The position numbers were made by a program, and so were the translations under genes. A stretch of 64,000 nucleotides of DNA, taken from NCBI GenBank assembly GCA_963797095.1, contig CAWCNY010000002.1, forward strand, positions 10,063 through 74,062, in the 5' to 3' direction. Shown piece by piece: positions 27,710 to 49,264 of the stretch. The notes beneath the pieces were generated by a model. It saw only the letters and a program-made list of their open reading frames with translations, had not been told where the DNA came from and ran no database searches. Positions within the stretch are counted from its first letter, which is position 1; each line of letters opens with the position of its first letter. This DNA comes from an uncultured Chloroflexia bacterium. Its GTDB lineage: Bacteria; Chloroflexota; Chloroflexia; QHBQ01; JADMIH01.

Positions 27710-27756
27710 TGGCGCGCCCGGAGTGATTCAAACCCCCGACCCTCCGATTCCGAAGC
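27710..27756 (-). repeat. Degenerate copy (4-5 mismatches) of the 3' half of tRNA-Arg(TCG), from CCA end to anticodon loop: an old att remnant
   Basis: tggcgcgcccggagTgattcaaacccccgaccctcCgatTcgaagC aligned to 37436-37482. Confidence 0.7.
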
Positions 27757-27904
27757 TATCCACGCCTAAACGCTGGGCTTCACACGTCAATTGTGCCACA
27801 TTTTAGCCGGAGTTATCGGGTGTAATTAGAGCCTCTGATAGAACAAGGAATTCATTAATATGTGTACGAGCATCAACCGTCCGGTTATGATGTCTAGAAG
27901 AAGA

Positions 27905-30900
27905 CTAGCCTTCCGAGTTGAGAAGACGTATCTTCTCAACTACGACTACCGGGTGCATCTTCAACGCCACCGCGTCTGCCAGCTGTAGGTCGGAAGGCGG
28001 TTGTACTCCTATTGCACGGCCCTTCCCTGTGATTTGTGCTCGCCCACTTACCAAGTAAGGGCCGTTGCCTCCTTTGGCTAGCACTTCAATATGAGCCTTG
28101 TAAGCATCGGGGAACAGCACAGTCTCTATCAGGCCGTAGCGGTCTTGCAGAGTGAGGAAGAGCATCACGCTACCGTCTTTGCACGTGTGCCTGTGACCTG
28201 CCGCCGCTATCCCCGCCACCTTTACTTCGCGTTCCGCATACCTGTGTAGCTCCTTTGAGGGCACAGCTTCAGGCACTTCTATTAGCTCCATCTCGTTGCA
28301 CGTCAGCGAGAAGCCTACCACTTCCTGTTCCAACCTCAGCTTCTCAATCGCAGTGTACTCTTCAACATGTGGCATTTCGATGCGCAAGGTGTCGTCCCCT
28401 AGAATTCTTGGACTGGCGCTGTCCTGCCTTTGCAGGATATCCCCCATCACACCTTGCATTCCCAGACCTACGGCTCCCTCTGAGCCGGTCGCTACAGACA
28501 GATGGGTCAGGCTATTTCGATTGGCCTGCCTTGCTGGCTTACGAGCAAACAGGAGTTGCGGGAGGAGGGCCATCATCTGTCTCCGATTCATTGAGGACAA
28601 CGAGTGCGGCGAATAGACAGCTCCTATTGGCTCGCCCATCTCACCAGGCAAGGGAGCAATTGAAGCAACAGAGGAGATAGAAGGGATAGAGGGAAGTGGA
28701 AACGGCACAGAGGAGCCTAAGTCGTCACAAGCGCCAACCTTCACCAACGCTGTGATCTCGGTCGGGCTCATCTGTACCCTGGACATCAAATCGAGCACGG
28801 AGCGGAAATGCCCTCCACTTCGCCGCTCCGTGAGCAGGGCCGATATGGTCTTCTCCGACACCCCTTTCACGAACTGTAGGCCGAACCTTATGCTTCGAGT
28901 AGCGGGTGGCACTTCACACCAAGCGCCACTCTCGTTGATATGAGGTAATAGCAGGCGAACGCGCAATCGCCTCGCGTCCTCCACGTACACCGATGGGCCG
29001 TAGTAGCCTCCCTGGTTGTTGAGCATGGCTGCAATATATTCGGCTGGATAGTGAGCTTTCACATAGGCCGAACGGTAGGCTGTGAGGGCGTAGGTGTGGG
29101 CATGGGCGGCGCAGAAGCCGAACCCGCTGTAGCCTGACACTATCTCCCACACCTTCTCGGCCCGTAGCTGGTCGATGCCGCGCTCGATTGCGCCTGCCAC
29201 GAACCGGCTGCCCAGCCTGGCGCGCTCCTCGGCTGAGCCTGCTTTGCCCAGGGCTTTGCGTAGCTGCTCGGCTTCCCCCAGCCCTAACCCGGCAAGCTGA
29301 TGCACCAACTTCAAGAATTGCTCTTGATACAGGATCACTCCGTTCGTCTCTTTGAGCAAAGGTTCCATAGATGGGTGCGGGTAGGTGACCGGCGCTTGCC
29401 CCAGGTGGCGGCGCATGAATGTTTCGAGGAAGCCTCCCTCCAATGGGCCTGGTCGGAAAAGGGACACTGCCATCGCAAGCTCGCCCAAACTGTGGGGTCT
29501 GAGCCACTTTACGAGGCCGCGCATACCTGGCGATTCCAGTTGGAAGCAGCCAAGGGTGTCGCCGTTAGCAATCATGCGGTAGGTGCGCTCATCGTCAAAG
29601 GGGATAGCTTCCAGAGCCTGCCCCACGCTATCGCTCCCTTTAGCCAGCCCTGACGCCCTGAGCGCATCCACGAGGGTGGTGAGGGCACGGCTCCCCAGCA
29701 AGTCCATCTTCACAAGGCCCAGGGCCTCTATGGCGTCCTTTTCGTACTGAGTGATGCTCATGCTCGGATCGCGAGCGGCTCGTTGGAGAGGTACGAGGTC
29801 GGCCAGGGGGATGTGAGAGGGGGTTATCACCACCCCGGCGCAGTGCATACCGGCATGGCGGGGCAGGCCCTGTATGGCGCGGGCAAGTTCGAAAGCTCGT
29901 TGTTCGTGTTCACCGCTTAGTCTGGGGGCAGAAGCTTCTTCGGAGTAGGTATCTGCTGCTTCCGTGCCGGGTTCATCTATGCCATCTATACCATCCATGC
30001 TTTCCAACCCGGTCTCTGCTTCGGCCTCCTCGTCGCGCTCCTGTTGGGAGATATGGGACAGGCGGTTTGCTATGTAGCTTATTCGCCCAGGGGTGACACC
30101 CATTGCCTTCGCCATCTCGCGCCAGGCCGAGCGCAGGCGGAAGGTGATATGAGTGCCTACTATAGCGGCGTGGTCGCGTCCGTACCGCTCGTAGACGTAG
30201 TGCAGCACCTCGTCCCGCCTGCGCCAGCACAGGTCGAGGTCTATGTCGGGTAACTCAAACTCGGCACGCTCTCGGCTCAGGAACCGCTCGAAGAGGAGGT
30301 CATGCTGGAGAGGGTCTATCTGGGTGATGCCAAGCACATAGGCCACCAGACTATCGGCAGCAGACCCACGCGCCATGATCGGGATGTCGCGGGAATGGGC
30401 GAAATGCACGATGTCATACACGACAAGGAAGTAGGGAGAGAAGCCGAGAGACTCTATCACTTCCAGCTCGTATTTCAGGCGAGCTATCACATCCTGGGTA
30501 AGGGGACGGTAACGACGAGTGGCCCCCGCAAAACAGAGCTTCCAGAGCCTGGAAAAGGGAGTTTCACTACCTTGAAGATCTACCGACGGAAAGAGGGGTT
30601 TATGAAGAGGCAATTCGAGGTTACACTGGTCGGCTATGAACTGGGTGTTGGCTATGGCCTGCGCACCCTGTGGGTAGGCGCTGAATAGCTCTACCATCTC
30701 CTCCGCCGATTTGAAGTAGCGCTCGGTGCCCACCTCATCTGTAAGGGAATTGCCTTCCTGGTATTGTCCATGTGCGGTCTCGAATATGTCGGGTGCATCC
30801 AGGGAGGCGCGACCCCTGGCTCCTATCCTGGCAGAGGCAAGAGCCAGGGCGGTATTGGCATCTTCCCGCGCCAGGTAGAGCACATCGTTGGTGGCGACGA

Positions 30901-31627
30901 CTGGAATGCTCAGGTTATTGGCAAGCGCAATCAAGGCTGGGATAGCTGCTGTATCGTCCCGACCAAGAGCGGTAAGCTCGATAAAGAAGTTGCCCTCACC
31001 GAAGGCCGACAGGAACATACCGGCTACCTTCGCCGCTCTTTGGGACTTACCTTGCATCACCAGCGAGTTGACCAGACCGCGCCTCCCACCTGACAAAGCA
31101 ATCAATCCCCTGACATGGCGTCCTGAGAGGATCATCTCTCGTGGCAGACGCACTGCTTTGAGAGGGCGGTGAGCAAGCTGTGTGCTTTGGGGAGGCGGTT
31201 TACCGGGGCGAGGTGTGAAGCCGAGCACAGGCACCCCCCATACGCCGGGTTCCCACGCCGGAATCTCGCCGCCATATTCAGTATCCTCATCGTCGTCATC
31301 GAAGCCAGCAGGAGTGAAAGCTTCGGGGTCTGAGTTGAGGCGTAGGACAGTAGAGAGGTGACATAGGTTGCGATAGCCGTCCATATTGCGAGCCAACAAG
31401 ACTACGCTGGAGCCATCGTCCAGGTCAACGGACATGCCGATTATCGGTTTTATGCCAGCTTTTTGGGCGTGTATGTAGAAGGATACCGCACCATAGAGGT
31501 TATTACGGTCGGTGAGACTCAGCGCGGGCATATGTAGCTTCTTTGCTGAGCCTATCAGGTTTGGGGGCGTGGCAGTGCCTTCCAGTAGGGAGAATGCGGA
31601 ATGGCAATGCAGATGGACGAACCCCAT
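27905..31627 (-). CDS. dnaE2: DNA polymerase III alpha-subunit family protein, DnaE2/ImuC-like (error-prone polymerase), 1240 aa with low-complexity insertions
   Basis: N-terminal PHP (HLHCHSAFSLLEG), polymerase active-site PDIDLD, C-terminal OB fold. No imuA/imuB neighbours. Flanked by tRNA-Arg 3'-half remnants. Confidence 0.75.
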   Translation of the reverse strand: MGFVHLHCHSAFSLLEGTATPPNLIGSAKKLHMPALSLTDRNNLYGAVSFYIHAQKAGIKPIIGMSVDLDDGSSVVLLARNMDGYRNLCHLSTVLRLNSDPEAFTPAGFDDDDEDTEYGGEIPAWEPGVWGVPVLGFTPRPGKPPPQSTQLAHRPLKAVRLPREMILSGRHVRGLIALSGGRRGLVNSLVMQGKSQRAAKVAGMFLSAFGEGNFFIELTALGRDDTAAIPALIALANNLSIPVVATNDVLYLAREDANTALALASARIGARGRASLDAPDIFETAHGQYQEGNSLTDEVGTERYFKSAEEMVELFSAYPQGAQAIANTQFIADQCNLELPLHKPLFPSVDLQGSETPFSRLWKLCFAGATRRYRPLTQDVIARLKYELEVIESLGFSPYFLVVYDIVHFAHSRDIPIMARGSAADSLVAYVLGITQIDPLQHDLLFERFLSRERAEFELPDIDLDLCWRRRDEVLHYVYERYGRDHAAIVGTHITFRLRSAWREMAKAMGVTPGRISYIANRLSHISQQERDEEAEAETGLESMDGIDGIDEPGTEAADTYSEEASAPRLSGEHEQRAFELARAIQGLPRHAGMHCAGVVITPSHIPLADLVPLQRAARDPSMSITQYEKDAIEALGLVKMDLLGSRALTTLVDALRASGLAKGSDSVGQALEAIPFDDERTYRMIANGDTLGCFQLESPGMRGLVKWLRPHSLGELAMAVSLFRPGPLEGGFLETFMRRHLGQAPVTYPHPSMEPLLKETNGVILYQEQFLKLVHQLAGLGLGEAEQLRKALGKAGSAEERARLGSRFVAGAIERGIDQLRAEKVWEIVSGYSGFGFCAAHAHTYALTAYRSAYVKAHYPAEYIAAMLNNQGGYYGPSVYVEDARRLRVRLLLPHINESGAWCEVPPATRSIRFGLQFVKGVSEKTISALLTERRSGGHFRSVLDLMSRVQMSPTEITALVKVGACDDLGSSVPFPLPSIPSISSVASIAPLPGEMGEPIGAVYSPHSLSSMNRRQMMALLPQLLFARKPARQANRNSLTHLSVATGSEGAVGLGMQGVMGDILQRQDSASPRILGDDTLRIEMPHVEEYTAIEKLRLEQEVVGFSLTCNEMELIEVPEAVPSKELHRYAEREVKVAGIAAAGHRHTCKDGSVMLFLTLQDRYGLIETVLFPDAYKAHIEVLAKGGNGPYLVSGRAQITGKGRAIGVQPPSDLQLADAVALKMHPVVVVEKIRLLNSEG

Positions 31628-31887
31628 GCAGGCTTCTCCAACACACCTTGTTGAGGTAGCTCATTAGTGTTGACAGAGGGAGCGTAAATACTCTCAACTA
31701 GATACATATCATAGAACATATGTGCTAGTCAATAGGTGGGGCTTTGATTCGTGGAATATTGCCTGGCTGCCTTAAATCGCAAAATCGCCAAGTCATCAAC
31801 TGAATCAACGTGGTGCAATCGTGAATAGTCAGGAAAAATCGGGGAGAATCGGAATTATCGTCTGTATTTACGCACAAAACTTGGCTT

Positions 31888-31934
31888 TGGCGCGCCCGGA
31901 GGGATTCAAGCCCCCGACCCTCTGATCCGAAGTC
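31888..31934 (-). repeat. Near-perfect copy (46/47) of the tRNA-Arg(TCG) 3' half, from CCA end to anticodon loop: attR-like remnant
   Basis: tggcgcgcccggagggattcaaGcccccgaccctctgatccgaagtc. Identity ends inside the anticodon loop. Confidence 0.8.
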
Positions 31935-32200
31935 CGCCAGATGGGTCATTTCAGCTAATAGCAGTATGCAGAATTGTATAATTGCATGGAGTTTTGTGCT
32001 TCAAGCCGACTGTTTCAGCTAATGATTGTACCAGGCTGGATGGGGCTATACAGGGCTATGTAATTCCCGTTGCTACACCTGTTGCTACACCTGCGGACTT
32101 ATCTGAGGGACTCGATTCTGTCGTACCCACTGCCTTGCTGCTTCGTGGTGCTCGTCATCTGGAATAGCATAGGCGAATAAAGCGCCGGTGTCGACAAAGA

Positions 32201-32503
32201 TCATGGTTTCATTTCGTGCTTAGGGTAGAGGATATCATCGTGATGCGCTGATATTTCTGTTCGCCCATCAGGATGCGGAATATAAGGAAGAGCTGCGATT
32301 TGATCCAGAACCGCAGCCAATTCCTCGCCCACCAGCAGGTTTCTGCCGCTTGTGCCCTTTACTCCCCTCTTGGTCGTCGCCCCTTGACCGGCAGCTGGGA
32401 TTTGTTGAACAACAATCATCTCCACCCTCGCGCCTTCCGGCAACTCAATCGGGCCGAGCGGGCGGAAAACACCATTCTCGTAAACTGCTCTGATCGATAC
32501 CAT
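32201..32503 (-). CDS. DUF104-like small protein (AF2212/antitoxin-like) with a C-terminal extension
   Basis: ATG at 32503 with RBS AGGAGG. MVSIRAVYENGVFRPLGPIELPEGARVEMIV matches the DUF104 signature. Confidence 0.4.
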   Translation of the reverse strand: MVSIRAVYENGVFRPLGPIELPEGARVEMIVVQQIPAAGQGATTKRGVKGTSGRNLLVGEELAAVLDQIAALPYIPHPDGRTEISAHHDDILYPKHEMKP

Positions 32504-32747
32504 CGGAATGCCTCCTGGTAGCGTTTCGGCGGTTGTCTGCACTCCACGCTTGTACACCATTCTGTTCCGATTATATCACAGCCCAGGCAGGAGATGACAT
32601 TATGTCTCACACCTTTTACAGGTACAACCGCCTGTATTGCTCAAATCGCACCAGCCTCTCATTCTCAATGACCACTATCGGGGTCACTGTCTTGATCCCC
32701 GTCTGTGAAGTGATATGTTCAGTTCGGATGGGTTTACCTCTTGCAGG

Positions 32748-33365
32748 TTATTCAGCATCGAGCACATCATCGACCCGCATTGAGAAATCAGCCAGGAGAG
32801 CGGAAGTTGCACGCTCACCGTGATGAAACACTCCGTGTTCCGTATACTTTGCGCCATTCAGCTTCAGGATAGTGACGGTGCCATTCATAGGATCGACGAT
32901 CCAATATTCGTTAATATGCGCCTCGGCGTAGTCGACGCGTTTTACTCGAATGTCTCGCGCCGGATCATCGGGACTGACGATCTCCACTACCAAATCGGCA
33001 CCGAGCCAATAGACTTCCTGATTGCGGGGATCATGAACGTCGCACAGGATGAGGAGATCCGGTTCGCGGAATTTGCCAGGACGGATCTGCAACCGCAATG
33101 GTGCATAGAAGACTGTGCCACCGCGCGGTTGCACGAAGGCCAGCAAAGCCAGGAAAAGAAACCGAGAGATCGCCTGATGTTTGCGAGTCGGCATCGGCAA
33201 TACCTCAATCACTCCATCCGTGAACTCGATGAGGCGCTTTGTTTGCTGGGTCAGGCGTAGATACTGCTCCTCGCTCCACAATCCTTGCAGTGAGTCGAGA
33301 TCGATCTCTGTGGGTTCGCCAGCCAGCAGCATCTGCATCATGGGAGCCTGCAAATTGGTAGCCAT
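32748..33365 (-). CDS. Uma2-family (DUF820) restriction-endonuclease-like protein
   Basis: 205 aa with the Uma2 pattern (TEEEYLRL...E...P..H..I...L.......PDL...D). Confidence 0.6.
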   Translation of the reverse strand: MATNLQAPMMQMLLAGEPTEIDLDSLQGLWSEEQYLRLTQQTKRLIEFTDGVIEVLPMPTRKHQAISRFLFLALLAFVQPRGGTVFYAPLRLQIRPGKFREPDLLILCDVHDPRNQEVYWLGADLVVEIVSPDDPARDIRVKRVDYAEAHINEYWIVDPMNGTVTILKLNGAKYTEHGVFHHGERATSALLADFSMRVDDVLDAE

Positions 33366-33481
33366 TAGTACTCCTCATCATACTCAAGTATCATTACGGT
33401 TGGCATTATTATGCTTTTCGGTCTGTTAGTATAATAACGTGGACCGCTGCCCTCTCCAGGTGGGTGGTCACTACCCTCCTG

Positions 33482-33976
33482 CTACACACTCCCTGCTTCC
33501 CCTGCTGCGTCCAGGTCTTGCCAGTTTCTGCCCCTCAGTTGTTCCAGATCGTCGCCGGTCCAACCCAATGCCTCGCGCAAGAACGTGCCTGAAAGCAGCA
33601 CCCTCAAGCGCTTGCGCAACTCCTCGGTGGTCTCGTCCTGGACGGTGAGGTCCTTATCCTCGCTCACCAGGTAATCGACCTTCGCGTTGATGGCCACCAA
33701 AGCTACAGGCACGTTGGTGACATCCCGCACAAGGTCGGCGCGAGCAGACACTTCGTCCGGCGTTGGGTCGGCAGCGATCTCGATCTCCGTGCGGGCGACA
33801 AACTGCTCGAACCGCTGAAGATGTTCCGGAAAGCTCTTTGCTAGGATTCTGCGAGCCTGAGCGAGCACATATGGGCTAAGCACGATCTGTATCTCTCCCC
33901 TCGATCTGGCTAACAGCACTTCGCGGGGCCAGCGCGACCAGCCACTGCCGGCCACAAGCACCGTAGTGTCGAGCAT
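33482..33976 (-). CDS. PIN-domain nuclease (putative TA toxin)
   Basis: MLDTTVL N-terminal acidic motif and SEDKDL distal acidic motif. The track ORF extends to 34099 with low-complexity N-terminal residues. Confidence 0.5.
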   Translation of the reverse strand: MLDTTVLVAGSGWSRWPREVLLARSRGEIQIVLSPYVLAQARRILAKSFPEHLQRFEQFVARTEIEIAADPTPDEVSARADLVRDVTNVPVALVAINAKVDYLVSEDKDLTVQDETTEELRKRLRVLLSGTFLREALGWTGDDLEQLRGRNWQDLDAAGEAGSV

Positions 33977-34082
33977 TACCCTGATCCGCCCTGTTCCCTC
34001 TCCTTGCTCCGGTTCTCCTCGATCTTCCCGCGCTCCCAGTCCTTCCCTATCTGATGGAGGCGGGTTAGGTGAGTCAGGTGAG

Positions 34083-34385
34083 TTAGCGTCGACTGCCATA
34101 TTGCTTGTCGAAGACCTCGCGCTTAGCCTCTTCCAGGTCCGCCATCAACTCCTCTTCGCTTATGCCTCTTTCTTCAAGTTCCTTACCAAAGGCTCGGCTG
34201 AACCTGTCGAACGCGGCGACAGCTTGCTCACGCCTCAATTTCTCGTACTCCTGGTAAGACAATATCACGGCCACCGGGTAGCCGTCGCGCTCCACGATCA
34301 GGTGCTCGTCCGACCGAAACACCCGCCTGAGCAGCTTGCCAAACGACCTGTGACCCTCCGAAGCTTTTACTATCGCTTGTCGCAT
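34083..34385 (-). CDS. Phd/YefM-family antitoxin
   Basis: QAIVKASEGHRSFGKLLRRV...ERDGYPVAVILSYQEYEKL. Immediately upstream of the PIN gene. Confidence 0.55.
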   Translation of the reverse strand: MRQAIVKASEGHRSFGKLLRRVFRSDEHLIVERDGYPVAVILSYQEYEKLRREQAVAAFDRFSRAFGKELEERGISEEELMADLEEAKREVFDKQYGSRR

Positions 34386-34478
34386 GTAACCACCTTCCTG
34401 CGCAATCCTGTTCGTATCCATACGTATCGTTACATATTATAACACTACTTGCTTCGTCCTGCTTCTCTGCCTTTTCCC

Positions 34479-34763
34479 CTAAAGCAGGTCCCGATAGGGG
34501 TCAATATCCTCCATCTGGAGGTCCTCAAGCGGGATGCCGAACGCCCGCGCCTGCTCCTGCATCAGCGCGATCACCTCGAAATACGCTAGTAGCCTTATAC
34601 TGTGGAACTCCCTCCACCCCGCGTCTTCCGGACCCCCACCCAACTCCTTCTCCGCTCTCGCGTCGAGCGCCCGCTCTTTCACCAGCCTTCCCAGGTCCGC
34701 CAGGTAGTACTTACAAGCGCTACCATTCGAGCTACGCCTCATGCCCGCTCCCCTCGCTTCCAT
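34479..34763 (-). CDS. Hypothetical protein
   Basis: 94 aa ORF on the island; no recognisable motif. Confidence 0.3.
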   Translation of the reverse strand: MEARGAGMRRSSNGSACKYYLADLGRLVKERALDARAEKELGGGPEDAGWREFHSIRLLAYFEVIALMQEQARAFGIPLEDLQMEDIDPYRDLL

Positions 34764-39794: not shown

Positions 39795-39796
39795 TT

Positions 39797-42700
39797 ATGC
39801 CGGCGCCACAATCCATCCTTTCCCACATTGAGCGCTTCGACAATGACCGACAAGCCTACAAATCCGGCGTCTATAATGAGGCGCAGGTTCGGCGCGAGTT
39901 CCTGGACCCCTTCTTCAAGGAGCTAGGCTGGGATGTAGAGAATGAAGGTGGTGCGGCGGTTGCCTACAGAGACGTAATTCATGAAGACACGTTGAAAATC
40001 GGTGAGACTACGAAAGCCCCGGACTACTCATTCCGCATAGGCGGCACTCGAAAGTTCTTTGTTGAGGCCAAAAAGCCGTCTGTCAACTTGGATACGGACC
40101 CTAGACCAGCTTACCAACTGCGGCGCTATGCCTGGTCTGCAAGCCTACCCCTAAGCATCCTCACCGATTTCGAGGAGTTCCTGGTTTATGATTGTCGAAT
40201 AAAGCCGGACGCCTACGACGGTGCGCGGGTGGCCCGCGCCATGTATCTCAAATACACGGAATATGCGGATAAGTGGGACGACATTGCCGCGCTCTTCTCT
40301 CGCGAGGCCGTGCTCGCCGGGTCGCTTGACAAATATACCGAATTGCTTAAGGCCAAGACAGGCTCGTCCACTGTTGATGCTGATTTCCTAAAGGAGATTT
40401 CAGTCTGGCGCGAGATGCTAGCACAAGACTTGGCAGCGCGGAATCCGCACCTAACTCAACGCGACCTCAATTATGCTGTGCAGATGACTATCGACCGTAT
40501 TATTTTCCTGCGTATTAGCGAAGACCGGGGCATTGAGCCATATGGCAGATTGCTGGAAGCACAACAGGGAGAAAGAGTGTATGCGCGGCTGTGTCGGCTC
40601 TTCGAAGCTGCCGACGACCGCTACAATTCGGGCCTGTTCCACTTCCGCGACGAGAAGGGCCACAACGAGCCGCACGATGAGCTAACCCCGGCACTGACTA
40701 TACACGACGACACACTCCGGCGTATCATCACCCGCCTTTACTACCCCGATTCGCCCTATGCCTTTTCAGTCATGCCGATTGAAATTCTGGGGCAGGTTTA
40801 CGAGCAGTTCCTGGGCAAGGTTATTCGCCTGGACGAATCTCGTAATGTTGAGGTTGAGGAGAAGCCAGAAGTACGCAAGGCGGGCGGCATCTACTATACG
40901 CCCACATACATCGTGGATTACATCGTAAAACAAACTGTCGGCAAACTCCTGGAAGGCAAGACGCCGAAGCAAGCCGTCGACTTTCGTATTGTGGACCCCG
41001 CGTGCGGCTCCGGTTCATTTCTCATCGGCGCATACCAATACCTTCTCAACTGGCATCGCGACTGGTATGTGGCTGACGGCACACAGAAGCACAAGAAGGA
41101 GCTTTATGAGGCTTCAGGAGGCGAGTGGCGACTAACTACGAATGAGCGCAAAAGGATACTACTAAATAACATTTATGGCGTGGATATCGACCCCCAGGCG
41201 GTAGAGGTCACAAAGCTCTCACTCCTGCTTAGAGTGCTTGAGGGAGAAACCGGACAAACCTTGGCAACGCAGCTGCGGATGTTCTACGAGCGGGCGCTGC
41301 CGGACCTGAGCAGCAATATTAAGTGCGGTAATTCCTTAATAGGTTATGATTTCTACAGCGCGACACAGGCCAGCTTTCTGTCGCCGGAGGAACACAGCCG
41401 CATCAACGTGTTCAACTGGCACGAGGCTTTTCCCCAGGTGTTCAAGCGCGACAGCTCTGGATTTGATGCTGTGATTGGCAACCCGCCGTACATTCGTATC
41501 CAGACTATGCAGGAGTGGGCTCCCGTAGAAGTCGCACACTACAAGCGACGATATGTTTCGGCCAGCAAAGGCAACTACGACGTGTATGTTGTGTTTGTGG
41601 AGAAGGGACTTTACCTGCTCAATAAGGGCGGACAACTTGGCTTCATCCTGCCCCACAAGTTTTTCAATGCTCAGTATGGCGAGCCGCTGCGCGCCCTGTT
41701 GGCACAGGGGCACCACTTAGCTGAAGTGGTGCATTTTGGCGACCAACAGGTGTTTTCAGGCGCGACGACCTATACCTGCTTGCTCTTCCTTGAAAAACGC
41801 GGCTCCTCTGAAGTGCAGATTGCCATGGTTGAGAATCTGGACCAGTGGCGCAGGAAGTCCCAGGCTGTGTACGGAACGGTTCCAGCAGAAGCTATTGCAC
41901 CTTCTGACTGGAATTTCTATGTCGGAGAGGGTGCTGACTTGTTTGGCAAGCTAAGACAGGTGCCAACAAAACTGGGTGCTATCGCGGAACGCATTTCGCA
42001 GGGGATTCGTACAAGCGCCAATGAGGTGTACGTGCTCAACATCGTGGACCAAGCGACCGATGTACTAATCGTCCATTCACAGTCGTTGGGTAAGCAGGTG
42101 GAGGTCGAGCGGGCCGCGGTGACACCCTTCCTTCAAGGCCGCGAAATCAAGTCATATAGGGTACTTCCTTCCGGTAAGGTGGTGATTATCCCTTATCACC
42201 TGGCGAATGGCCGCGCAAAGCTCGTTCCCGAGGATGAAATGAAGACTCGTTTCCCGCTCACTTTGGCCTATCTTGTTGCAAATAGGGCATACCTAGAGGA
42301 ACGGGAACGGGGCAGGATGCATGGCTCGTCCTGGTATGCCTTCGTCTATCCAAAAAACATCGAATTGATGAAGTCGGCCAAGATTCTTGTGCCGGACATT
42401 GCCGATAGAGCAGCATTTGCACTAGATGAAGCCGGCGAATACGCCTTCACAAGCGGTTATGGCATTACATTGAGACCTGATGTTAGCTTGTCGCCCAACT
42501 ATGTTTTGGGCCTACTGAACAGCAAAGTCCTGGACTTCTACCTAAAGCGTGTCAGCACGACTATGCGCGGCGGCTTTTTCCGATACTTCACACAGTACGT
42601 TGAGCAATTGCCGATGCGTGCTATCAATTTCGCTGACCAGGCCGACAAAGCCCGACACGACCACATGGTATCACTTGTAGCACGGATGGTAGACTTTTAC

Positions 42701-42847
42701 AGACAATCAGCCGTTGCCAAGACACCGCACGACAAGACTGCAATCCAGCGCCAGATAGACGCCGCCGACGGGCAGATAAACTCCCTTGTGTACGAGCTTT
42801 ATGGGCTGACAGATGAGGAAATCCGAATTGTTGAGTCGGATAAATAG
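39797..42847 (+). CDS. Type IIG (MmeI-family, Type IIL) restriction-modification enzyme: PD-ExK endonuclease, N6-adenine methyltransferase and target-recognition domain in one 1016-aa polypeptide
   Basis: N-terminal PDYSF...FFVEAKK (D/ExK). HsdR_N-like region (YAWSASLPLSILTDFEEF). MTase motif I VDPACGSGSFL and motif IV GNPPYIR. Colinear with MmeI. Confidence 0.8.
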   Translation: MPAPQSILSHIERFDNDRQAYKSGVYNEAQVRREFLDPFFKELGWDVENEGGAAVAYRDVIHEDTLKIGETTKAPDYSFRIGGTRKFFVEAKKPSVNLDTDPRPAYQLRRYAWSASLPLSILTDFEEFLVYDCRIKPDAYDGARVARAMYLKYTEYADKWDDIAALFSREAVLAGSLDKYTELLKAKTGSSTVDADFLKEISVWREMLAQDLAARNPHLTQRDLNYAVQMTIDRIIFLRISEDRGIEPYGRLLEAQQGERVYARLCRLFEAADDRYNSGLFHFRDEKGHNEPHDELTPALTIHDDTLRRIITRLYYPDSPYAFSVMPIEILGQVYEQFLGKVIRLDESRNVEVEEKPEVRKAGGIYYTPTYIVDYIVKQTVGKLLEGKTPKQAVDFRIVDPACGSGSFLIGAYQYLLNWHRDWYVADGTQKHKKELYEASGGEWRLTTNERKRILLNNIYGVDIDPQAVEVTKLSLLLRVLEGETGQTLATQLRMFYERALPDLSSNIKCGNSLIGYDFYSATQASFLSPEEHSRINVFNWHEAFPQVFKRDSSGFDAVIGNPPYIRIQTMQEWAPVEVAHYKRRYVSASKGNYDVYVVFVEKGLYLLNKGGQLGFILPHKFFNAQYGEPLRALLAQGHHLAEVVHFGDQQVFSGATTYTCLLFLEKRGSSEVQIAMVENLDQWRRKSQAVYGTVPAEAIAPSDWNFYVGEGADLFGKLRQVPTKLGAIAERISQGIRTSANEVYVLNIVDQATDVLIVHSQSLGKQVEVERAAVTPFLQGREIKSYRVLPSGKVVIIPYHLANGRAKLVPEDEMKTRFPLTLAYLVANRAYLEERERGRMHGSSWYAFVYPKNIELMKSAKILVPDIADRAAFALDEAGEYAFTSGYGITLRPDVSLSPNYVLGLLNSKVLDFYLKRVSTTMRGGFFRYFTQYVEQLPMRAINFADQADKARHDHMVSLVARMVDFYRQSAVAKTPHDKTAIQRQIDAADGQINSLVYELYGLTDEEIRIVESDK

Positions 42848-43139
42848 CCGGGGGTCAGAGACCAAGACCATCAACACCAGAACGAAAGCCCAAGAGAATC
42901 AAACGCAGCCTATATAGCTCTATGGTATGAGGTGTTGTGAGTTCACGACGTGGAACATTGCCTCAATGTCATTGTCAGCGCCCGCCTCCTTGAATAAGGC
43001 AATTGCCTCATCCGGCGTGCATAGGCCGTATTCTCGAAAGAAGGCGGTCGTAAAGTGCCAATCAGAAGGGCCAGATTTTTCGCCGTATTTCGTCTTGCGC
43101 CCCACAACATCGGCGAAAGCAACAAGGTCGCATAGCTCA

Positions 43140-43496
43140 CTAAGCCGCTTTAGCGCAGGATGAAGAACGCGGGGCGTTTTTGTAGGTATAGGCACGCTGC
43201 TTGTGTCGGCTCCAGGTCTTGTGTCGTTTCTTATGGCATTTTGTACAAAGAGTACGAAGGTTGTCAAGCTCATTGTTGCCTCCCAAGCACAACGGGATAA
43301 GATGGTGGACCTCAAGGCGGCAGTTGCGCTTCTTGCAATCCCTGCAAGTGAAGTGGTCGCGCAGGAGTGCCAAGCGGCGGATGGCGCGCCAATTGCGGCC
43401 TCGTGCAGCACGCCTACACTTGTCGGAGCAATATGCGTGAATATGGCTCTTCGGTGAGAAATCGGTTCCGCAACTTCGACATTTCTTGGTATTCAT
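43140..43496 (-). CDS. HNH endonuclease (McrA-like small HNH protein)
   Basis: ATG at 43496. N-terminal zinc ribbon CRSCG...CSDKC. HNH core HHLIPLCLGGNNELDNLRTLCTKCHKKRH. Confidence 0.7.
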   Translation of the reverse strand: MNTKKCRSCGTDFSPKSHIHAYCSDKCRRAARGRNWRAIRRLALLRDHFTCRDCKKRNCRLEVHHLIPLCLGGNNELDNLRTLCTKCHKKRHKTWSRHKQRAYTYKNAPRSSSCAKAA

Positions 43497-43630
43497 CGTG
43501 CCGCCTCCTCATTTGTACCTGTATTATACCAGTACAAAACGTACTTGTCAAGGGGTTTGCGCAATATTGCTCGAAATTGGTCGGTCATAGTTTGGCAGCA
43601 TGACGAGCAAAGCTAAATGTAAGAGCCTCT

Positions 43631-43659
43631 TGACAATTTAGTTTCTTACCTGTATAATA
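43631..43659 (+). promoter_or_regulatory. Consensus sigma-70-type promoter (TTGACA, 17 bp spacer, TATAAT) driving the RHH gene
   Basis: cTTGACAatttagtttcttacctgTATAATacc. The 15-mer tacctgtatAatacc overlaps the -10, and a second copy tacctgtatTatacc is at 43513-43527. Confidence 0.6.
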
Positions 43660-43690
43660 CCTGCATGATATATTTGAGGAGGCATGACAA

Positions 43691-43891
43691 GTGGTAGAAA
43701 AGAACCCCAATAAGGGCGGCAGACCTCGCAAGGACACACATGCAAGGCAGTTCCCCCTTTACATCTACATGATGGACGAGGAGAGCCTGCAGCAGGTCAA
43801 AGAAGCAGCAGAGCGACAAGGGCTTAGCTTCAGCACCTGGGCACGGACCGTACTGGTAAGAGAGGCACGGCGCATCTTGAGCGGCGAGTAA
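43691..43891 (+). CDS. Ribbon-helix-helix (CopG/Arc-like) DNA-binding protein
   Basis: GTG start with RBS GGAGG. Beta-strand FPLYIYMM followed by two helices (SLQQVKEAAERQGLS, FSTWARTVLVREARR). Paralog of the 49515-49733 product. Confidence 0.5.
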   Translation: MVEKNPNKGGRPRKDTHARQFPLYIYMMDEESLQQVKEAAERQGLSFSTWARTVLVREARRILSGE

Positions 43892-44058
43892 TTGCCCAAA
43901 TCGCCCCGCATATTGTAGAGACCCCCCGGTAACTTTCCATTTGCCTTTCGGCAATTGTGTGGCCCCCCGGTTCTCTACTTGCCGCTACGCGTGTGACGCG
44001 ACCCCAAAGCGGCCAACATAAGCACAACACGGAGGGAAATGGTTATTAGTGCGGAGAT

Positions 44059-44340
44059 GTGCCCCTGGCGCTTATCCAGTCGTCAAGAGGAGGTAGTTTG
44101 TTGGAAACTTTGGAAGCAACGCCTGAAGTATGTGAGTCGCTCATATTCGATGCGCGTAACCGGCTAATGCTGGCCTATCTAGCTCGTGAAGATGGTGTTT
44201 CGGGCGCTTACGAGCGCTTGGAGGTCGAGCGTTGGCGGGTCAACCTGATGGAAAGCGAGATGGGGCGCCCCTGCCTCCCTGTGCTGACTGAGTTACGCGC
44301 ATCGGGACAGCAGATTTATCTATTGGACCTTGACGATTGA
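44059..44340 (+). CDS. Hypothetical small protein
   Basis: 93 aa ORF; no motif. Confidence 0.25.
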   Translation: MPLALIQSSRGGSLLETLEATPEVCESLIFDARNRLMLAYLAREDGVSGAYERLEVERWRVNLMESEMGRPCLPVLTELRASGQQIYLLDLDD

Positions 44341-44925
44341 GCGCAGCGCCCCGCAGACCTGTGCGATAATGGGCACCGGGTCGGGGTAGCCATACTTACG
44401 CCGGGCGATTATGCAGTTATCGGGGAGCGTGTCAAGAGCAAATACCCTGAAAGATGATTGCTCCCCCCGATTGAAGCGTAGCCGCCCCGGCTCCGTTCCT
44501 GAACGCTGAACATAGTCTGCATGCCAGGCAGCGAAAAGCCTGAGGTCTATTATCGTCCAGGCTACGAGGCCGCTCTCATCAGGCGACTTGAACCCGTAGA
44601 ACATCACATCACCTTCGCCATCAAGTATCTTGCCAAGCTCTGTTCGCCTTCCGCTTGGCACACTGGCGCGCAGAGTGATTTCACCTACATATCTCAGGTA
44701 GTCGTAAGCGCGTAGCCTAACTGCGATTCTCCGGTGGGGAAGGATTGCGTCGGTGTTCTTGTGTCGGTCAATATGAAGGGGCGCGCGTTGGATAGTGTAC
44801 CGCCCGACAAGCGCGCCGATTTCCGGAAGTAGCATGTCGTCGCGAGACTGCTCAACGCGGCGGTCAACGTCGGCAACTTGATACAGTAACTGTCTTTGGA
44901 GCGTGGGTAATTCGGTGTCAATCAT
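44320..44925 (-). CDS. Hypothetical protein (mobile-element cargo)
   Basis: 201 aa ORF; no motif I can assign. Confidence 0.35.
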   Translation of the reverse strand: MIDTELPTLQRQLLYQVADVDRRVEQSRDDMLLPEIGALVGRYTIQRAPLHIDRHKNTDAILPHRRIAVRLRAYDYLRYVGEITLRASVPSGRRTELGKILDGEGDVMFYGFKSPDESGLVAWTIIDLRLFAAWHADYVQRSGTEPGRLRFNRGEQSSFRVFALDTLPDNCIIARRKYGYPDPVPIIAQVCGALRSIVKVQ

Positions 44926-45041
44926 ACTTAGTTCCTCAGTTCGATATGTGGGGCATAGTTAAGCCCCTAGTTGTAGTTCTAGGGGCAGCCAGCGAGCGGA
45001 ATCCATTACTTGCTTCTAGTATTCATTACTTGCTTCCGCCC

Positions 45042-46556
45042 CTATACTCTATAAGGAGAATCCATCGGGGCATATTGCCTGTAATTACCGGGAAGGAAAA
45101 GCTTTGTTCGTCTCCCTCTGCCTGCAGCGACATCAAGCTGCTTGCCACTCGCATCACGAGCGTAGGCAACTATCCGCTTGAGCAGCAGGTTCTTCATAGC
45201 TTCTTGACAACGCTTCTGGGGAAGGGCGCACCAGGCCTCTAGGAATTGCCAGCTAAGGGGGGCCGGGTCACCATAGGTGTGGAGCCACCGCGCTTGGAAG
45301 AGAAGGTTGAGCTTGTCATAGACTATGCGGGTGTCTGCCTCGTCCAGCTCGTATGGCAGGGCTGGAAGTTGGACGCGAGCCGGTTGCACATACCCTGTCT
45401 CGACCATGAGGCGCAGATGCCATGTGACGGACCCTGATTTGCTGGGACGCACCTCCTCAGGTGAGCGTGGGCGACGCAATGCAAGGGCATACGCGACTTC
45501 CGACATGAGAAGCGCCGGGCTTGCATCTGGCCGCACATGGAAGTCTCTATAGACATAGACGCCATTCTGGCCGGGATAGATGCTTGCGGATGGACCATTC
45601 TCCTCGTGGCCCGGCAAGACACAAAGGAACGTCTTTCCGAAGGGCACATCAGGGATACCCATAAGCCTACATGCCGCCCGGATGAAGTCCTGGTCGCGGC
45701 TAGCATCTGTGAGGTACTCACCAACTAGGCCCCCCTCAGTTCGGGCGCACTCTGCTATGCGCTGTAGCGCAGCCTTGCGCTCCTGGAGCAAGTTGGGCAT
45801 GATGAGGCTCTTCTGTGACTGCCTCCTGTTGGCATCGCTGCGGCCTGTGCTTGGCACTCTTGACCTACCTTCGGCCTGCATCAGCTTCTCAGCGAGCCAG
45901 TCGGGTAGACAAAGGGGCGGGCGCTCGTGAGGCCCGAAACTTGCAAGCCAGGTGTACCGCCTGCCGGACTGGTGAAGGGAAGGCGGCAGTACCAGATAGC
46001 CGCCAACGCCGCGCACATCTACTCCGGGAGCCACTTTGCCGTTTGAAGCGCTAATGTATCGCCCCCCAGTCGAGAAGAAGAGATGCTCACCCCAACCTTC
46101 GCGACCGCTGCGGGCCTTTACGGTCTCTGTGAAGGCCGGGCCATGCTTCGCTATCCAGTCGTTCAAGGCCTCTATGCCTTCTTCTCCGTCCAGGTCTATT
46201 GCGACAAGATTAGCCCTTGCAGGTACGCACCCGATGCCGGCGTGCGCCCATCGCGTCCACCATTTGCTTATGACTTCACGGTTTGTGGAGGCATTTTTCA
46301 GGTAGTCTTTGATAAGGGGCTTTTTGTTGACGCTGTCCACCGGGAATACTGGTATTCCGGCTTGGGCGTATGCGAGTGCCCACTCTAGCATATCAGGTGA
46401 TTCGGTCTGGGTAGGGAGATAAGGAATTGGCTTCGTCTGCGTTATATTGGGTGCCGCCCCTGTCTTCACCGGAGCATAAGGGCGAACTCTTGGGCGGGTT
46501 GGTCGTGTAGTAATTGCGAGTGTCATTTGGCCCCCTATTGTGGGCAGGTGCTCCAA
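45042..46556 (-). CDS. Bifunctional DNA primase/polymerase (PrimPol) domain protein with a C-terminal extension (replication initiator of an integrative element or plasmid)
   Basis: AYAQAGIPVFPV...KKPL...W.THAGIGCVP...NLVAIDLDGEEG matches the PrimPol N-terminal consensus (bifunctional primase-polymerase, AEP superfamily). Confidence 0.7.
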   Translation of the reverse strand: MEHLPTIGGQMTLAITTRPTRPRVRPYAPVKTGAAPNITQTKPIPYLPTQTESPDMLEWALAYAQAGIPVFPVDSVNKKPLIKDYLKNASTNREVISKWWTRWAHAGIGCVPARANLVAIDLDGEEGIEALNDWIAKHGPAFTETVKARSGREGWGEHLFFSTGGRYISASNGKVAPGVDVRGVGGYLVLPPSLHQSGRRYTWLASFGPHERPPLCLPDWLAEKLMQAEGRSRVPSTGRSDANRRQSQKSLIMPNLLQERKAALQRIAECARTEGGLVGEYLTDASRDQDFIRAACRLMGIPDVPFGKTFLCVLPGHEENGPSASIYPGQNGVYVYRDFHVRPDASPALLMSEVAYALALRRPRSPEEVRPSKSGSVTWHLRLMVETGYVQPARVQLPALPYELDEADTRIVYDKLNLLFQARWLHTYGDPAPLSWQFLEAWCALPQKRCQEAMKNLLLKRIVAYARDASGKQLDVAAGRGRRTKLFLPGNYRQYAPMDSPYRV

Positions 46557-46607
46557 ACGCGCCTGCCCTTCAGTGCTTTAAATCTGCAGTACGGCGAACT
46601 TTTCGCT

Positions 46608-46817
46608 TTAGCGCTTGTGGTCGATATAGGCTTCAGCAGCTTTCGCGGCTTCGGTGGGGTCGTTGAAAACCCCTGGAATAGCGCGACGCCCCGCCCCATA
46701 GATAGGGGTTATGCTTGCGCGGTATCGATACAGACGACCTGCGGCCCTGCGAACTTCGATGGTGTAGTCCTTATACTGATATGCGTCTACCAGATTTACC
46801 CTTGTTCCAGCTTTCAC
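46608..46817 (-). CDS. Hypothetical small protein
   Basis: 69 aa ORF; 4-nt overlap with the upstream ORF suggests co-translation. Confidence 0.3.
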   Translation of the reverse strand: MKAGTRVNLVDAYQYKDYTIEVRRAAGRLYRYRASITPIYGAGRRAIPGVFNDPTEAAKAAEAYIDHKR

Positions 46818-47017
46818 TTTGTATCACCTCCCTGGCTCTGAGTTGTTGCCCATTCTTGGGCTAAGGCGTATAAGAGGCGGCTAATGCAGCCGCGCTCTGT
46901 GATTCTTCCCGGTCCGCGTTTGTGGAGAAGTCCTCGTGCTCTGGCCATAGAGCGAAGGAGTTCTTCCGTCCGGGGTGTAACGGTAAGTAACAACTGCTTT
47001 TCCTTAGTCTGCTTCAC
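46814..47017 (-). CDS. Hypothetical small basic protein
   Basis: 67 aa ORF; start is 11 bp from the iteron-like repeats. Confidence 0.3.
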   Translation of the reverse strand: MKQTKEKQLLLTVTPRTEELLRSMARARGLLHKRGPGRITERGCISRLLYALAQEWATTQSQGGDTK

Positions 47018-47027
47018 TGCGTCCTCC

Positions 47028-47130
47028 TAATTCTGTAACTGGATACCTATATTTATCCCCTCTACTTAATCAAGCAGGTTCGTATTCGTAACTGGATACC
47101 TATGTTTCCCCCTTCTACTTAATCAAGCAG
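47028..47130. repeat. Two ~50-bp direct repeats (iteron-like) in a divergent intergenic region of the element
   Basis: attctgtaactggatacctatatttatcccctctacttaatcaagcagg and attc-gtaactggatacctatgtttcccccttctacttaatcaagcagg. Confidence 0.8.
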
Positions 47131-47171
47131 GCAGGTTTCTTATTCTGAAAGTTATCGGGTAGACTGTACAT

Positions 47172-47603
47172 ATGCTTTCTGCCCGACTTATCTTCGCGCA
47201 CCCGGAACTATGTCAACCGCTAACCGGGCTATCGCCGGCTGACTTCCGTGCAACCGCCAAGGGAATCGGAGAGTACTACATAGACGAACGTGAAGCGCGG
47301 CTCAGTAGCCGCCCTCGCATCCGGGAAATTGGAGGCGGCTCGAAGCCGCTCTTGCCAGCAGACGTCATATTGCTGGGCATGATATGGCTACGCTGCCGCC
47401 CCACACAAAAGGCATTAGCGGCGCTATTTGGCAGAAGCGTGCCAACAGTTGGTCGTTACAAGCAGCTAGTAGAGCCAATACTGCTAGAAACGCCTTATGC
47501 CTTCCTTGCCACCCCAGACCCCGGACGGAAGCGCAGGCGCGATTTGGGTGAGTTGCGGGCGGACATTCCGGAGCTAGATAAGTTGTGGCGTCAGTGCCGC
47601 TAG
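47172..47603 (+). CDS. Truncated IS5/Harbinger-type transposase N-terminal HTH domain (HTH_Tnp_4-like); no DDE domain follows
   Basis: LTGLSPADFRAT...RPRIREIGGGSKPLLPADVILLGMIWLRCRPTQKALAALFGRSVPTVGRY matches the N-terminal HTH module of IS5/DDE_Tnp_4 transposases. The ORF ends after 143 aa. Confidence 0.4.
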   Translation: MLSARLIFAHPELCQPLTGLSPADFRATAKGIGEYYIDEREARLSSRPRIREIGGGSKPLLPADVILLGMIWLRCRPTQKALAALFGRSVPTVGRYKQLVEPILLETPYAFLATPDPGRKRRRDLGELRADIPELDKLWRQCR

Positions 47604-47870
47604 TTCCTGCAACTTCATGCAAGATTTCCTGCAAGAATTGCCTTTCGAATGAAGTCGGTTGAGGCCTGTTTTGAGCACGCTACCCATTCCCGTTGCGCTT
47701 GTCGCGCTGTATTTGTACGGGCTACGCGCCGCCCTGATACACGCACAGGCGATAGTGGGTAAGGCAATTGTTGGCGCTGCCTTACGCTCTCGCTTGCCCA
47801 CAAATGAAAAGGGCCGCCCCTATAGGGCGGTTCTCGATGGTTAACGTGCTTGCAGGGTCGGGGAGCCAAG

Positions 47871-49106
47871 CTAAGGAATCAGGCCGGCCTTCTTCAACCT
47901 CTTTCTGACACCCATATCAGACATCTGATACTTACGAGCTACTGCACGATAGTTGCTCTGCGCTACCTCCCTGGCAAGTACCTCAGCAGGAGGCAACTCC
48001 TTGGGAACTGCGTTCTTGCTTCGGGTGCCGCTGCCGTCTTCCAGGTGCAACTCGTGGCGCAGGTGGTCAAGGGGCCCGTATTTGGCATGTTCAGCCAGCA
48101 GGTCCTCTTTGCTGATGTTCAGGTAGTATCTGCGGGTCGTGTCGAACTGCTCATGTCCCAGCGCTTCTTGCAGCGTAGCGCCCCTCATGCCGTTCCGGTG
48201 AGCCTGGGTTGCAAATGTGTGCCTGCAAACGTGGGGATGGACAGGCACCCGCGTGATGCCCGACAACTTACTCAGTCGCGTGAATACCAAGCGCAACCCT
48301 GCATAAGTCAGGGGAGCACCCTGATGGCTGACCCACAATTCCTGAAAGGGCGTGCTCATCTTCAATCGGAAGCGGTGGAGGTATGCCCATAGCTCTCGCC
48401 TAGCGAAGTTGCCCACCACTACCTGCCTCTCCCTGTTGCGCTTCCCACGCACTGTAAATAGCCCCTCGCCTGGGTTGATGTCGCCCACTTTGAGGCTTAG
48501 AAGTTCTCCGGCCCGGATACCGCTATCCAGCAAGACAGCAAGTATGCAGCGGTTGCGCTGCACGGTGAAGGGTAGGCCGAAGTTCTCACAGGCAGCGAAT
48601 AACTGGGCAATCTCTTCGTCGGTAAACACAGTCACCTGCCAGCGATTAGGCAGGGACGGCATATCCACCAGGCTGAATGGGTTGCGTGGGAGGTCCGCTT
48701 CCTTCGTCGCCCAACGAAAAAAGGCGCGCAGGCTTCGGGCGAAGCCATGCACGCTGGCAGGGGTTAATGGTTTGCGGCTGCTGGGGCGGCACACACCCCA
48801 CCGGCCACTGTCGCCTGGGTCCTCCTGCAAATAGACCAGGAAGGCCCGTATGTACAAGGGGGAAATACTAGAGAGGTTAGTTGGATACCCCTCTTCCTTT
48901 AGAAACCATCGGAAGCGCTCCAGATTCCACTGATAGAATTGGATTGTTCGGGGGCTGTGTCGCTGCGAGCGATGCTTCAGCAGGAACCCTTGAACATAGA
49001 AGTTGAAGTCGTCCGCCGATTCTTGAGTAGACTGTTGGGGGTACAAGCCGCTGCCGGGCGCTTTGAGGTTTGAGTAGCGATTCCGAATTAGATGCTCGTT
49101 TGACAT
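47871..49106 (-). CDS. int: Tyrosine-type site-specific integrase (phage integrase family)
   Basis: ATG at 49106 with RBS AGGAGA. N-terminal SAM-like domain. C-terminal catalytic R...HxxR...Y (VHPHVCRHTFAT...RYY). Confidence 0.85.
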   Translation of the reverse strand: MSNEHLIRNRYSNLKAPGSGLYPQQSTQESADDFNFYVQGFLLKHRSQRHSPRTIQFYQWNLERFRWFLKEEGYPTNLSSISPLYIRAFLVYLQEDPGDSGRWGVCRPSSRKPLTPASVHGFARSLRAFFRWATKEADLPRNPFSLVDMPSLPNRWQVTVFTDEEIAQLFAACENFGLPFTVQRNRCILAVLLDSGIRAGELLSLKVGDINPGEGLFTVRGKRNRERQVVVGNFARRELWAYLHRFRLKMSTPFQELWVSHQGAPLTYAGLRLVFTRLSKLSGITRVPVHPHVCRHTFATQAHRNGMRGATLQEALGHEQFDTTRRYYLNISKEDLLAEHAKYGPLDHLRHELHLEDGSGTRSKNAVPKELPPAEVLAREVAQSNYRAVARKYQMSDMGVRKRLKKAGLIP

Positions 49107-49223
49107 GGGTGTTGTCTCCTATTATAGGAGAGCAATAACCCCTCAGCTACTCAATTCACGCCTGAAATCGCTGTCTGGCTAGGTTCTAGGCCCGCAACGA
49201 GGTGTAATAAGGTCAAACTCGCA

Positions 49224-49264
49224 ATCCGAAGTCAGATGCTCTAGTTCGCTGAGCTACGGGCGCA
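49224..49264 (-). repeat. Exact 41-nt copy of the 5' half of tRNA-Arg(TCG) (anticodon loop to 5' end), adjacent to the integrase start
   Basis: atccgaagtcagatgctctagttcgctgagctacgggcgca is identical to 37472-37512. It overlaps the 3'-half copies only in the anticodon-loop core atccgaagtc. Confidence 0.85.

Follow-up and report, generated by a model that had tools for sequence, protein, structure and literature searches.

Within the 64,000 nt of uncultured Chloroflexia DNA analysed here (the window: positions 10,063 to 74,062 of the forward strand of contig CAWCNY010000002.1, assembly GCA_963797095.1) there is one tRNA gene, tRNA-Arg(TCG), and its attachment site appears to have been used at least three times by elements carrying tyrosine integrases, with crossovers at or next to the anticodon loop. 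On this reading, to which we give a probability of roughly 0.7, the newest insertion is an element (R) that entered by way of the tRNA's 5' half, while the DNA to its left records older insertions by way of the 3' half. tRNA genes are the commonest landing sites of genomic islands. To our knowledge, nearly all described elements replace the 3' end of the tRNA and leave the host promoter in charge.

The evidence begins with partial copies of the tRNA. A blastn-short search of the window, in which the query was the tRNA gene plus 60 nt of flanking sequence on each side, recovered three end fragments, all in direct orientation (Table 1): since the gene is read from the minus strand, right of it is upstream, where the 5' copy stands, and left of it is downstream, where the 3' copies stand. 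A first-pass annotation of this DNA had reported the tRNA with its partial copies and a shared core of about 10 nt, and both are borne out by ARAGORN, Rfam and blastn-short: the 3' and 5' copies overlap at sense positions 31-40 only (gacttcggat on the tRNA strand, atccgaagtc on the plus strand), a segment made up of the 7-nt anticodon loop together with 2 nt and 1 nt of stem. The same annotation had every copy breaking inside the loop. The breaks do fall at the loop, but 1-2 nt outside the loop proper. Its view of these repeats as anticodon-loop attachment sites and its proposal that a single tRNA was used repeatedly are both supported. The leftmost copy is 35/36 identical to the tRNA over 27709-27744, and from there a degenerate similarity can be followed by eye to about 27756, where the last letters are ...ccgaag. 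A profile built from three 3'-half copies found no further 3'-half copy in the 64 kb. An intact tDNA accompanied by cognate end fragments, in the same orientation and on the same replicon, is the signature of an Islander island, and the identity block, which ends at the anticodon loop with symmetric stem flanking, is that of the anticodon-loop class of attachment site. The T-loop of the tRNA-Arg gene (37452-37458) reads TTTGAAT, with U in place of the usual C56; in the copy at 31888 one T-arm base differs (CTTGAAT).

The right-hand segment, from the core to the 5' copy, is convincingly an integrated element, as the first-pass annotation had proposed for an integrase-bearing stretch of about 37.5-49.2 kb bounded by a displaced 5' half. 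Its repeat-to-repeat distance is 11.75 kb, its GC content is 0.539 (flanks, 0.581) and its 3-mer profile is atypical. The 5' copy forms the junction nearest the integrase gene (int), which lies 117 nt from it and is co-oriented with the tRNA; that the product is a tyrosine integrase, also claimed earlier, is upheld by its Pfam match. In an alignment of 25 family members (homologues 45-60% identical) the catalytic residues R186, K222, H292, R295, H318 and Y328 are invariant and have Xer-like spacing. The NCBIfam matches are XerC/XerA/XerD-like and below cutoffs, including those to the XerC and XerD equivalogs (TIGR02224, 149.8 bits, cutoff 335; TIGR02225, 132 bits, cutoff 330), and the best PDB relatives are XerA, XerD, XerC-like and XerH. 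The possibility that int encodes a chromosomal XerC/XerD dimer-resolution recombinase was considered and rejected: the scores fall short of the equivalog cutoffs, and the gene lies in an element together with a PrimPol gene and cargo.

Support for the 5'-half mode comes from the surroundings of the integrase family, compared at nine distinct loci (the window is counted among the seven of 5' type). At seven of the nine, representing six tRNA identities, a tRNA 5' fragment lies directly upstream of int and is co-oriented with it. Outside the window these fragments are of Gln-CTG (positions 1-38 in L162, 1-37 in L169), Ile-GAT (positions 1-45, L164/L165), Glu-TTC (L166/L167, directly after an unrelated intact tRNA-Ile), Met-CAT (L168) and Phe-GAA (positions 1-51, L171/L172). 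L162 and L171, with elements of 7.1 kb and 4.8 kb, are the two loci where the other end is in view, and in both that end has a restored intact tRNA. Across the family the 5' fragments stop somewhere from position 37 to position 51, never short of the loop's 3' edge: such block ends fit a crossover in the anticodon loop, a fit that falls short of proof. In the window, as in L162 and L171, it is the tRNA's 5' part that has been displaced, and the 5' part of the restored gene comes from the element; ahead of the restored tRNA of L162 a clear TTGACA-17-TATAAT supplied by the element can be seen. Because the layout recurs at seven of nine loci and at six tRNA identities, with a restored tRNA in two, 5'-half replacement would appear to be a habit of this integrase clade. 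The comparison also bears on earlier claims. That the element supplies the new 5' half of the tRNA and its upstream region is supported; that use of the 5' half is unusual is fair, although the mode is already documented (PMC4383910, PMC6563490, PMC8371274); and on the question, raised at the same time, of whether the integrase might target a different site, the relatives show the same layout at other tRNAs. A scan of metagenomes returned distant integrases only (at most 36% identical), mostly in the usual layout of tRNA followed by int. One distant relative, L136, displays the ordinary 3'-half mode at the anticodon loop of tRNA-Arg(TCG), with a 5.3-kb island and a 3' fragment covering tRNA positions 27-72 (L136 114-249 and 5443-5488).

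The history that these data suggest is as follows. R would be the most recent intact insertion, and its attachment site (attP) would have carried tRNA positions 1-40 behind an upstream region of its own. Recombination at the loop would have stranded the host promoter and the host 5' part directly upstream of int, and would have joined the 5' part of the element to the resident 3' part, producing the live tRNA gene: sense positions 1-40 of that gene would derive from R, and the 3' part from the left-hand island. This is the "reversed", 5'-half form of tRNA integration. Because recombination strands the host promoter beside it, int would be under that tRNA promoter when integrated; when the element is circular it would instead lie behind the element's own tRNA-upstream region. 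A hairpin pairing the ribosome-binding site of int would restrain translation. The left-hand 3'-half copies would be left by older, ordinary 3'-half insertions, the integrases of which have since been lost. R itself may still be mobile.

The left-hand DNA is divided by the copy at 31888-31934 into two segments, L2 (next to the tRNA) and L1. L2 has a GC content of 0.551 and supplies the terminator behind the live tRNA. Its genes specify an AF2212-like protein, Uma2, a DUF6930/DUF7309 protein, a PIN/Phd toxin-antitoxin pair and two proteins of unknown function, and the segment probably represents a decayed island that arose in the usual 3'-half way. Uma2 (32748-33365, minus strand) is a PADLOC candidate defence match (PDC-S03, E 2.8e-37), and the PIN/Phd pair lies at 33482-34421 (minus strand). 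L1, with a GC content of 0.563 against 0.581 in the flanks, is borderline atypical in composition. The first-pass annotation had described about 22 kb of mobilome, with 3'-half repeats bounding cargo to the left. R, and probably L2, sustain that description; the figure is overstated because L1 contains only a replicative dnaE. The repeats are there and L2 is a probable island, but the island status of L1 does not follow and neither left-hand segment has an integrase. A tandem island array has an integrase for each member: here the fragments are present, and L1 and L2 lack one.

Several observations weigh against three or more integrase-mediated insertions with R in 5'-half mode. A tblastn search with 25 family members found no integrase or remnant of one in 27.7-37.4 kb, and L1 holds a DnaE1-type polymerase gene alone. 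The closest genomes compared share 61-66% DnaE identity and no synteny, and provide neither an empty site nor a circular junction. No excisionase was identified. No sigma-70 consensus promoter was detected upstream of the live tRNA in the window, and because of this the promoter swap is something that we infer here. At two of the nine family loci (L163 and L170) the tRNA directly upstream of int is intact, so the clade is not uniformly 5'-type. Finally, an independent short-read contig, L001 (Logan ERR11718635), stops inside the 41-nt repeat, and the junction is thus unconfirmed by it.

The first two of these points suit an alternative in which R alone is mobile, L1 and perhaps L2 are ordinary chromosome, and the 3'-half copies are scars of departed elements or of rearrangement. 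We regard this as a real possibility, if not a probable one: the best relatives of the sole gene of L1 are Chloroflexia DnaE proteins (the best match is 66% identical), and the GC content of the segment is near that of the flanks. The left-hand copies are, however, direct repeats with the same core end, and the 20 nt outside the two of them resemble each other. The motif TTTCGTGCG(TAA) occurs within 10-26 nt after all three tRNA 3' ends in the window; the same 9-mer/TTTCGTGCG motif is found 59-81 nt upstream of int in L164 (9940), L169 (9942) and L163 (9920). This shared motif, which may be an arm-type site or an operator site, ties the copies on the left to attP arms in related elements, and suggests that even the copy at 27710 is element-derived. 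Also contrary to an ordinary chromosomal L1, the segment has a larger 3-mer distance than any of 70 equal-size flank windows (narrowly so), and no conserved dnaE neighbourhood or adjacent tRNA is found in six relatives, from which it follows that the position of dnaE is lineage-specific; among the relatives compared, L173 included, there was neither a tRNA near dnaE nor a gene order around dnaE in common with the window. The TTTCGTGCG link leaves dnaE, at the position expected for an integrase, without explanation.

Homologues of DnaE, like those of the integrase, assign the DNA to Chloroflexia, and an exact-sequence search with DnaE gave no match. The dnaE gene has some features of its own. 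The Pfam match to its PHP domain is split in two, as if something had been inserted at about residues 98-169, and its GC3 is 0.64 (0.68-0.71 in neighbouring core genes). In L005 a tyrosine integrase gene (4273-5364, minus strand), 29% identical to that of the window, divergently adjoins dnaE (5522-9259, plus strand); the DnaE proteins of L004 and L005 are 83% identical and the two have no flanking genes in common. The neighbourhood of dnaE may be variable in this group.

An assembly artefact, in which a free circle bearing tRNA positions 1-40 was threaded into an empty tRNA by way of the roughly 40-nt repeat, is improbable. The 41-nt repeat is longer than typical short-read k-mers, and the contig that stops within it (equivalent to window 44730-49253, 99.9% identical) has an end that resembles a repeat-induced assembly break; yet independent assemblies of L162 and of L171/L172 show the same integrated form with chromosomal genes on both sides, and the window was taken from a 1.37-Mb contig. 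Such an artefact would in any case alter the current state of the element only, and not the attachment-site logic. Ordinary tRNA duplication and decay, with no site-specific recombination, can be dismissed because of the common breakpoints and the family evidence: tRNA genes do duplicate, and the copy at 27710 is degenerate, but the breaks of the three partial copies all fall in one 10-nt stretch at the anticodon loop, none keeps both halves, and the 5' copy abuts an integrase whose relatives adjoin 5' fragments of five other tRNAs.

Table 1. Features of the tRNA-Arg(TCG) locus, with positions in the window
Feature	Position	Strand	Basis or detail
Live tRNA-Arg(TCG) gene	37436-37512	-	ARAGORN; Rfam RF00005, 63.9 bits
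10-nt core atccgaagtc, putative crossover region	37473-37482	.	Overlap of 3'-half and 5'-half identity blocks
tRNA 3'-half copy, sense 31-77	31888-31934	-	46/47 identical; blastn E 1.8e-19; nhmmer 80.5 bits; direct orientation
Degenerate tRNA 3'-half copy, ends at anticodon loop	27709-27756	-	blastn E 6.7e-13; nhmmer 75 bits
Displaced host tRNA 5' part, sense 1-40 plus 1 upstream base	49224-49264	-	41/41 identical; blastn E 2.9e-18; direct orientation
Element R, integrated element	37483-49223 (segment including repeats 37473-49264)	-	Direct repeats, genes, shared backbone, composition
Xer-like tyrosine integrase gene (int), 411 aa, C-terminal extension of about 65 aa	47871-49106	-	Pfam PF00589, E 5.9e-29
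PrimPol-type primase/polymerase gene, replication module of R	45042-46556	-	Pfam PF09250, E 1.3e-36; PHROG DNA primase
Small backbone genes common to R and L162	42920-44925	-	tblastn
Cargo: 412-aa protein of unknown function and 1016-aa Type IIG restriction-modification enzyme	38556-42847	+	PADLOC, Pfam
Inverted decayed pseudo-tRNA-Arg within R	37669-37750	+	blastn-short, repeat search
Palindrome CTCCTATAATAGGAG in int 5' untranslated region, predicted hairpin pairing the Shine-Dalgarno sequence	49116-49130	-
Inverted pair TGGTTTGACA / TGTCAAACCA, candidate integrase arm-type site	37590-37631	.	Repeat search
Motif TTTCGTGCGTAA just outside tRNA 3' end	37410-37421	+	Variants 31868-31879 (-) and 27690-27701 (-) outside 3'-half copies
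Bidirectional terminator hairpin, 30 nt beyond tRNA 3' end, within L2	37383-37405	.
L2, 5.5 kb, without integrase	31935-37435	-	Pfam, PADLOC, composition
L1, 4.1 kb, sole gene dnaE	27757-31887	-	Pfam
dnaE, replicative DnaE1 type	27905-31627	-	NCBIfam TIGR00594 730 bits, NF004226 769 bits; error-prone model 644 bits

Beyond int, R also encodes a small helix-turn-helix (HTH) gene and a PrimPol that is 34-38% identical to the products of int-adjacent PrimPol genes in L171, L172 and L166. Its backbone genes are common to L162, L171 and L166; in tblastn comparisons with L162 identity is 61-67% at 42.9-43.5 kb and 41% at 44.3-44.9 kb. Because the backbone genes are held in common with L162, and PrimPol with L171 and L166, the restriction-modification module, which is not present in the related elements, is best described as cargo: its Type IIG enzyme matches PADLOC PDLC03604 over its full length (E 2e-265) and contains the Pfam domains Eco57I, N6_Mtase and TaqI_C. 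Between the PrimPol and HTH genes is a 53-nt tandem repeat (47030-47131; 1.9 copies, 89% matches) that may be an iteron or origin region. Two of the related loci have further content of note: the element in L169 carries a second integrase gene and BrxB/PglX-like (BREX-type) genes (L169 11343-12335 and 17473-21257), and in L171 (15100-21030) the restored tRNA-Phe is followed by about 6 kb without called genes and then by Cas2, the intervening stretch being possibly a CRISPR array.

In the region in front of int, the 45 nt upstream of the gene are predicted to fold with the Shine-Dalgarno sequence paired at all nine family loci (mean z -2.3 against shuffles). The paired sequences differ from locus to locus (covariation), and the hairpin probably limits translation of int. 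A hairpin followed by a T-run lies between the 5' fragment and int in L162, L164 and L169, and both types of hairpin are consistent with a need to restrain int. Local repeats include candidate integrase arm sites. Copies of GTCAAAC related to the TGGTTTGACA / TGTCAAACCA pair are found at 49212-49218 and 49098-49104. Because GGTTTGACA is not enriched window-wide, and the local inverted pairs alone are suggestive, the arm-type assignment goes only as far as a candidate. Each of the two arms flanking the core has inverted pairs based on GTTTGACA / TGTCAAAC (37590-37631, 49093-49104 and 49212-49223), and one GTTTGACA / TGTCAAAC copy overlaps the first codons of int (Met-Ser-Asn), which are conserved in the family.

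A feature overlooked by the first-pass annotation stands head-to-head with the live tRNA and 156 nt from it: an inverted pseudo-tRNA-Arg that keeps tRNA positions 2-7, 23-31 and 44-71, with deletions and one insertion elsewhere. Its most conserved part, 37724-37750, is an inverted copy of tRNA positions 45-71 (the T-arm), 27/27 identical (E 6.5e-10). It is called as a tRNA by neither ARAGORN nor Rfam, and its fold is no better than that of shuffled sequences (z 0.56); on these grounds a tRNA-like RNA was rejected. An equivalent inverted relic, of tRNA-Gln positions 21-66, is present in L162 (16839-16875, minus strand) and absent from L171, and L136 has a mirror feature, an inverted copy of tRNA positions 1-32 (28/32) situated 30 nt past the tRNA. 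Two further roles were considered and set aside. The inverted T-arm copy is not an antisense leader in a tRNA precursor, given that in L162 the element promoter sits between relic and tRNA; nor is there support for an inverted copy of the "other" half as a general feature of attP, since the window, L162 and L136 have one whereas L171 and most 3'-mode loci lack it. By analogy with elements that carry their own tRNA (PMC10865867), the pseudo-tRNA may conceivably be what remains of an element-borne complementing tRNA.

These strands can be joined, tentatively, in a single account that we think rather unlikely to hold as a whole. In it, a Chloroflexota clade of Xer-like integrases would have promoter-replacing 5'-half integration as its normal mode (at least six tRNA identities), with int placed behind a stranded host promoter and a hairpin sequestering its ribosome-binding site; the inverted pseudo-tRNA would record ancestors that carried a whole complementing tRNA; and at the locus described here both halves of tRNA-Arg, its upstream region and its terminator would all come from mobile DNA, with dnaE caught in the array.

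Current understanding is not overturned by these results: 5'-half integration, while uncommon, and tandem arrays at tRNAs are already known. What is modestly new is a Xer-like integrase clade of Chloroflexota that is predominantly of the 5' mode, a single tRNA occupied from both sides with a live gene made from element-supplied halves, and, in addition, the pseudo-tRNA relic, the conserved int hairpin and the oddly placed dnaE. If true, a clade that habitually uses the 5' half hands transcription of an essential tRNA to the element and puts int under a strong host promoter, an exchange that would change the regulation of the element. Such elements would escape detection by any tool that looks for 3' fragments or discards Xer-like integrases. 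The locus would also show a single tRNA gene wholly rebuilt from foreign DNA, and it prompts one to ask how a gene for an essential polymerase ended up between remnants of attachment sites.

Among known systems, tandem islands in Islander are like the left-hand side of this locus in having successive co-oriented 3' fragments downstream of a single tRNA with foreign-looking genes between them (PMC4383910). They differ in that each member needs an integrase of its own, whereas L1 and L2 have none, one segment contains dnaE only, and here the 5' side of the tRNA is occupied too. Mycobacteriophages with tRNA-dependent lysogeny resemble R in that the element carries a copy of the targeted tRNA isotype, which in R is a decayed inverted pseudo-tRNA only; in those phages the host tRNA is not rebuilt and a functional phage tRNA is needed, whereas this locus has a rebuilt tRNA and a dead extra copy (PMC10865867). 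Thus tRNA-dependent lysogeny was rejected for this locus: the tRNA is rebuilt, and the extra copy goes unrecognized by ARAGORN and Rfam.

Control of int has a measured counterpart in ICEKp1, where int is driven by a tRNA promoter, the 5' untranslated region is attenuating and promoter switching depends on the state of the element (PMC13023037). By analogy, int of R would likewise lie directly downstream of a host tRNA promoter when integrated, with stem-loops in its 5' untranslated region. The difference is one of mode: ICEKp1 uses the 3' half and its int follows an intact tRNA, while int of R follows a tRNA 5' fragment.

For bacteria and archaea, integration into the 5' part of tRNAs has been called "considerably less frequent" (PMC6563490), and elsewhere "seldomly encountered in bacteria" and a characteristic of the archaeal integrases that are pTN3-like (PMC8371274); 5'-fragment islands account for 159 of the 3919 in Islander (PMC4383910). 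The pTN3-like integrases of Thermococcales share with R an attB consisting of the tRNA 5' half, and their restored tRNA is expressed from element-borne sequences (PMC8371274), as that of R would be. The int gene of pTN3 is, however, split by integration and supplies the promoter, and the host is archaeal; here int is intact and the host bacterial. Islands with "reversed target orientation" (Zhao & Williams 2002, as cited in PMC6563490) have, as far as that citation describes them, the same plan as R: there is a tyrosine integrase, one end has the intact tRNA and the opposite end, upstream, a 5' fragment in the same orientation, the 5' part and upstream region come from the element, and the identity block ends at the anticodon loop, a sublocation recognized as a class of tRNA attachment sites (Williams 2002, as summarised in PMC4383910 and PMC8371274). 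R differs from Islander islands in its Xer-like integrase, a type that Islander filters out (PMC4383910), and this integrase comes from a hitherto undescribed clade in Chloroflexota that mostly uses the 5' mode (seven of nine loci, six tRNA identities).

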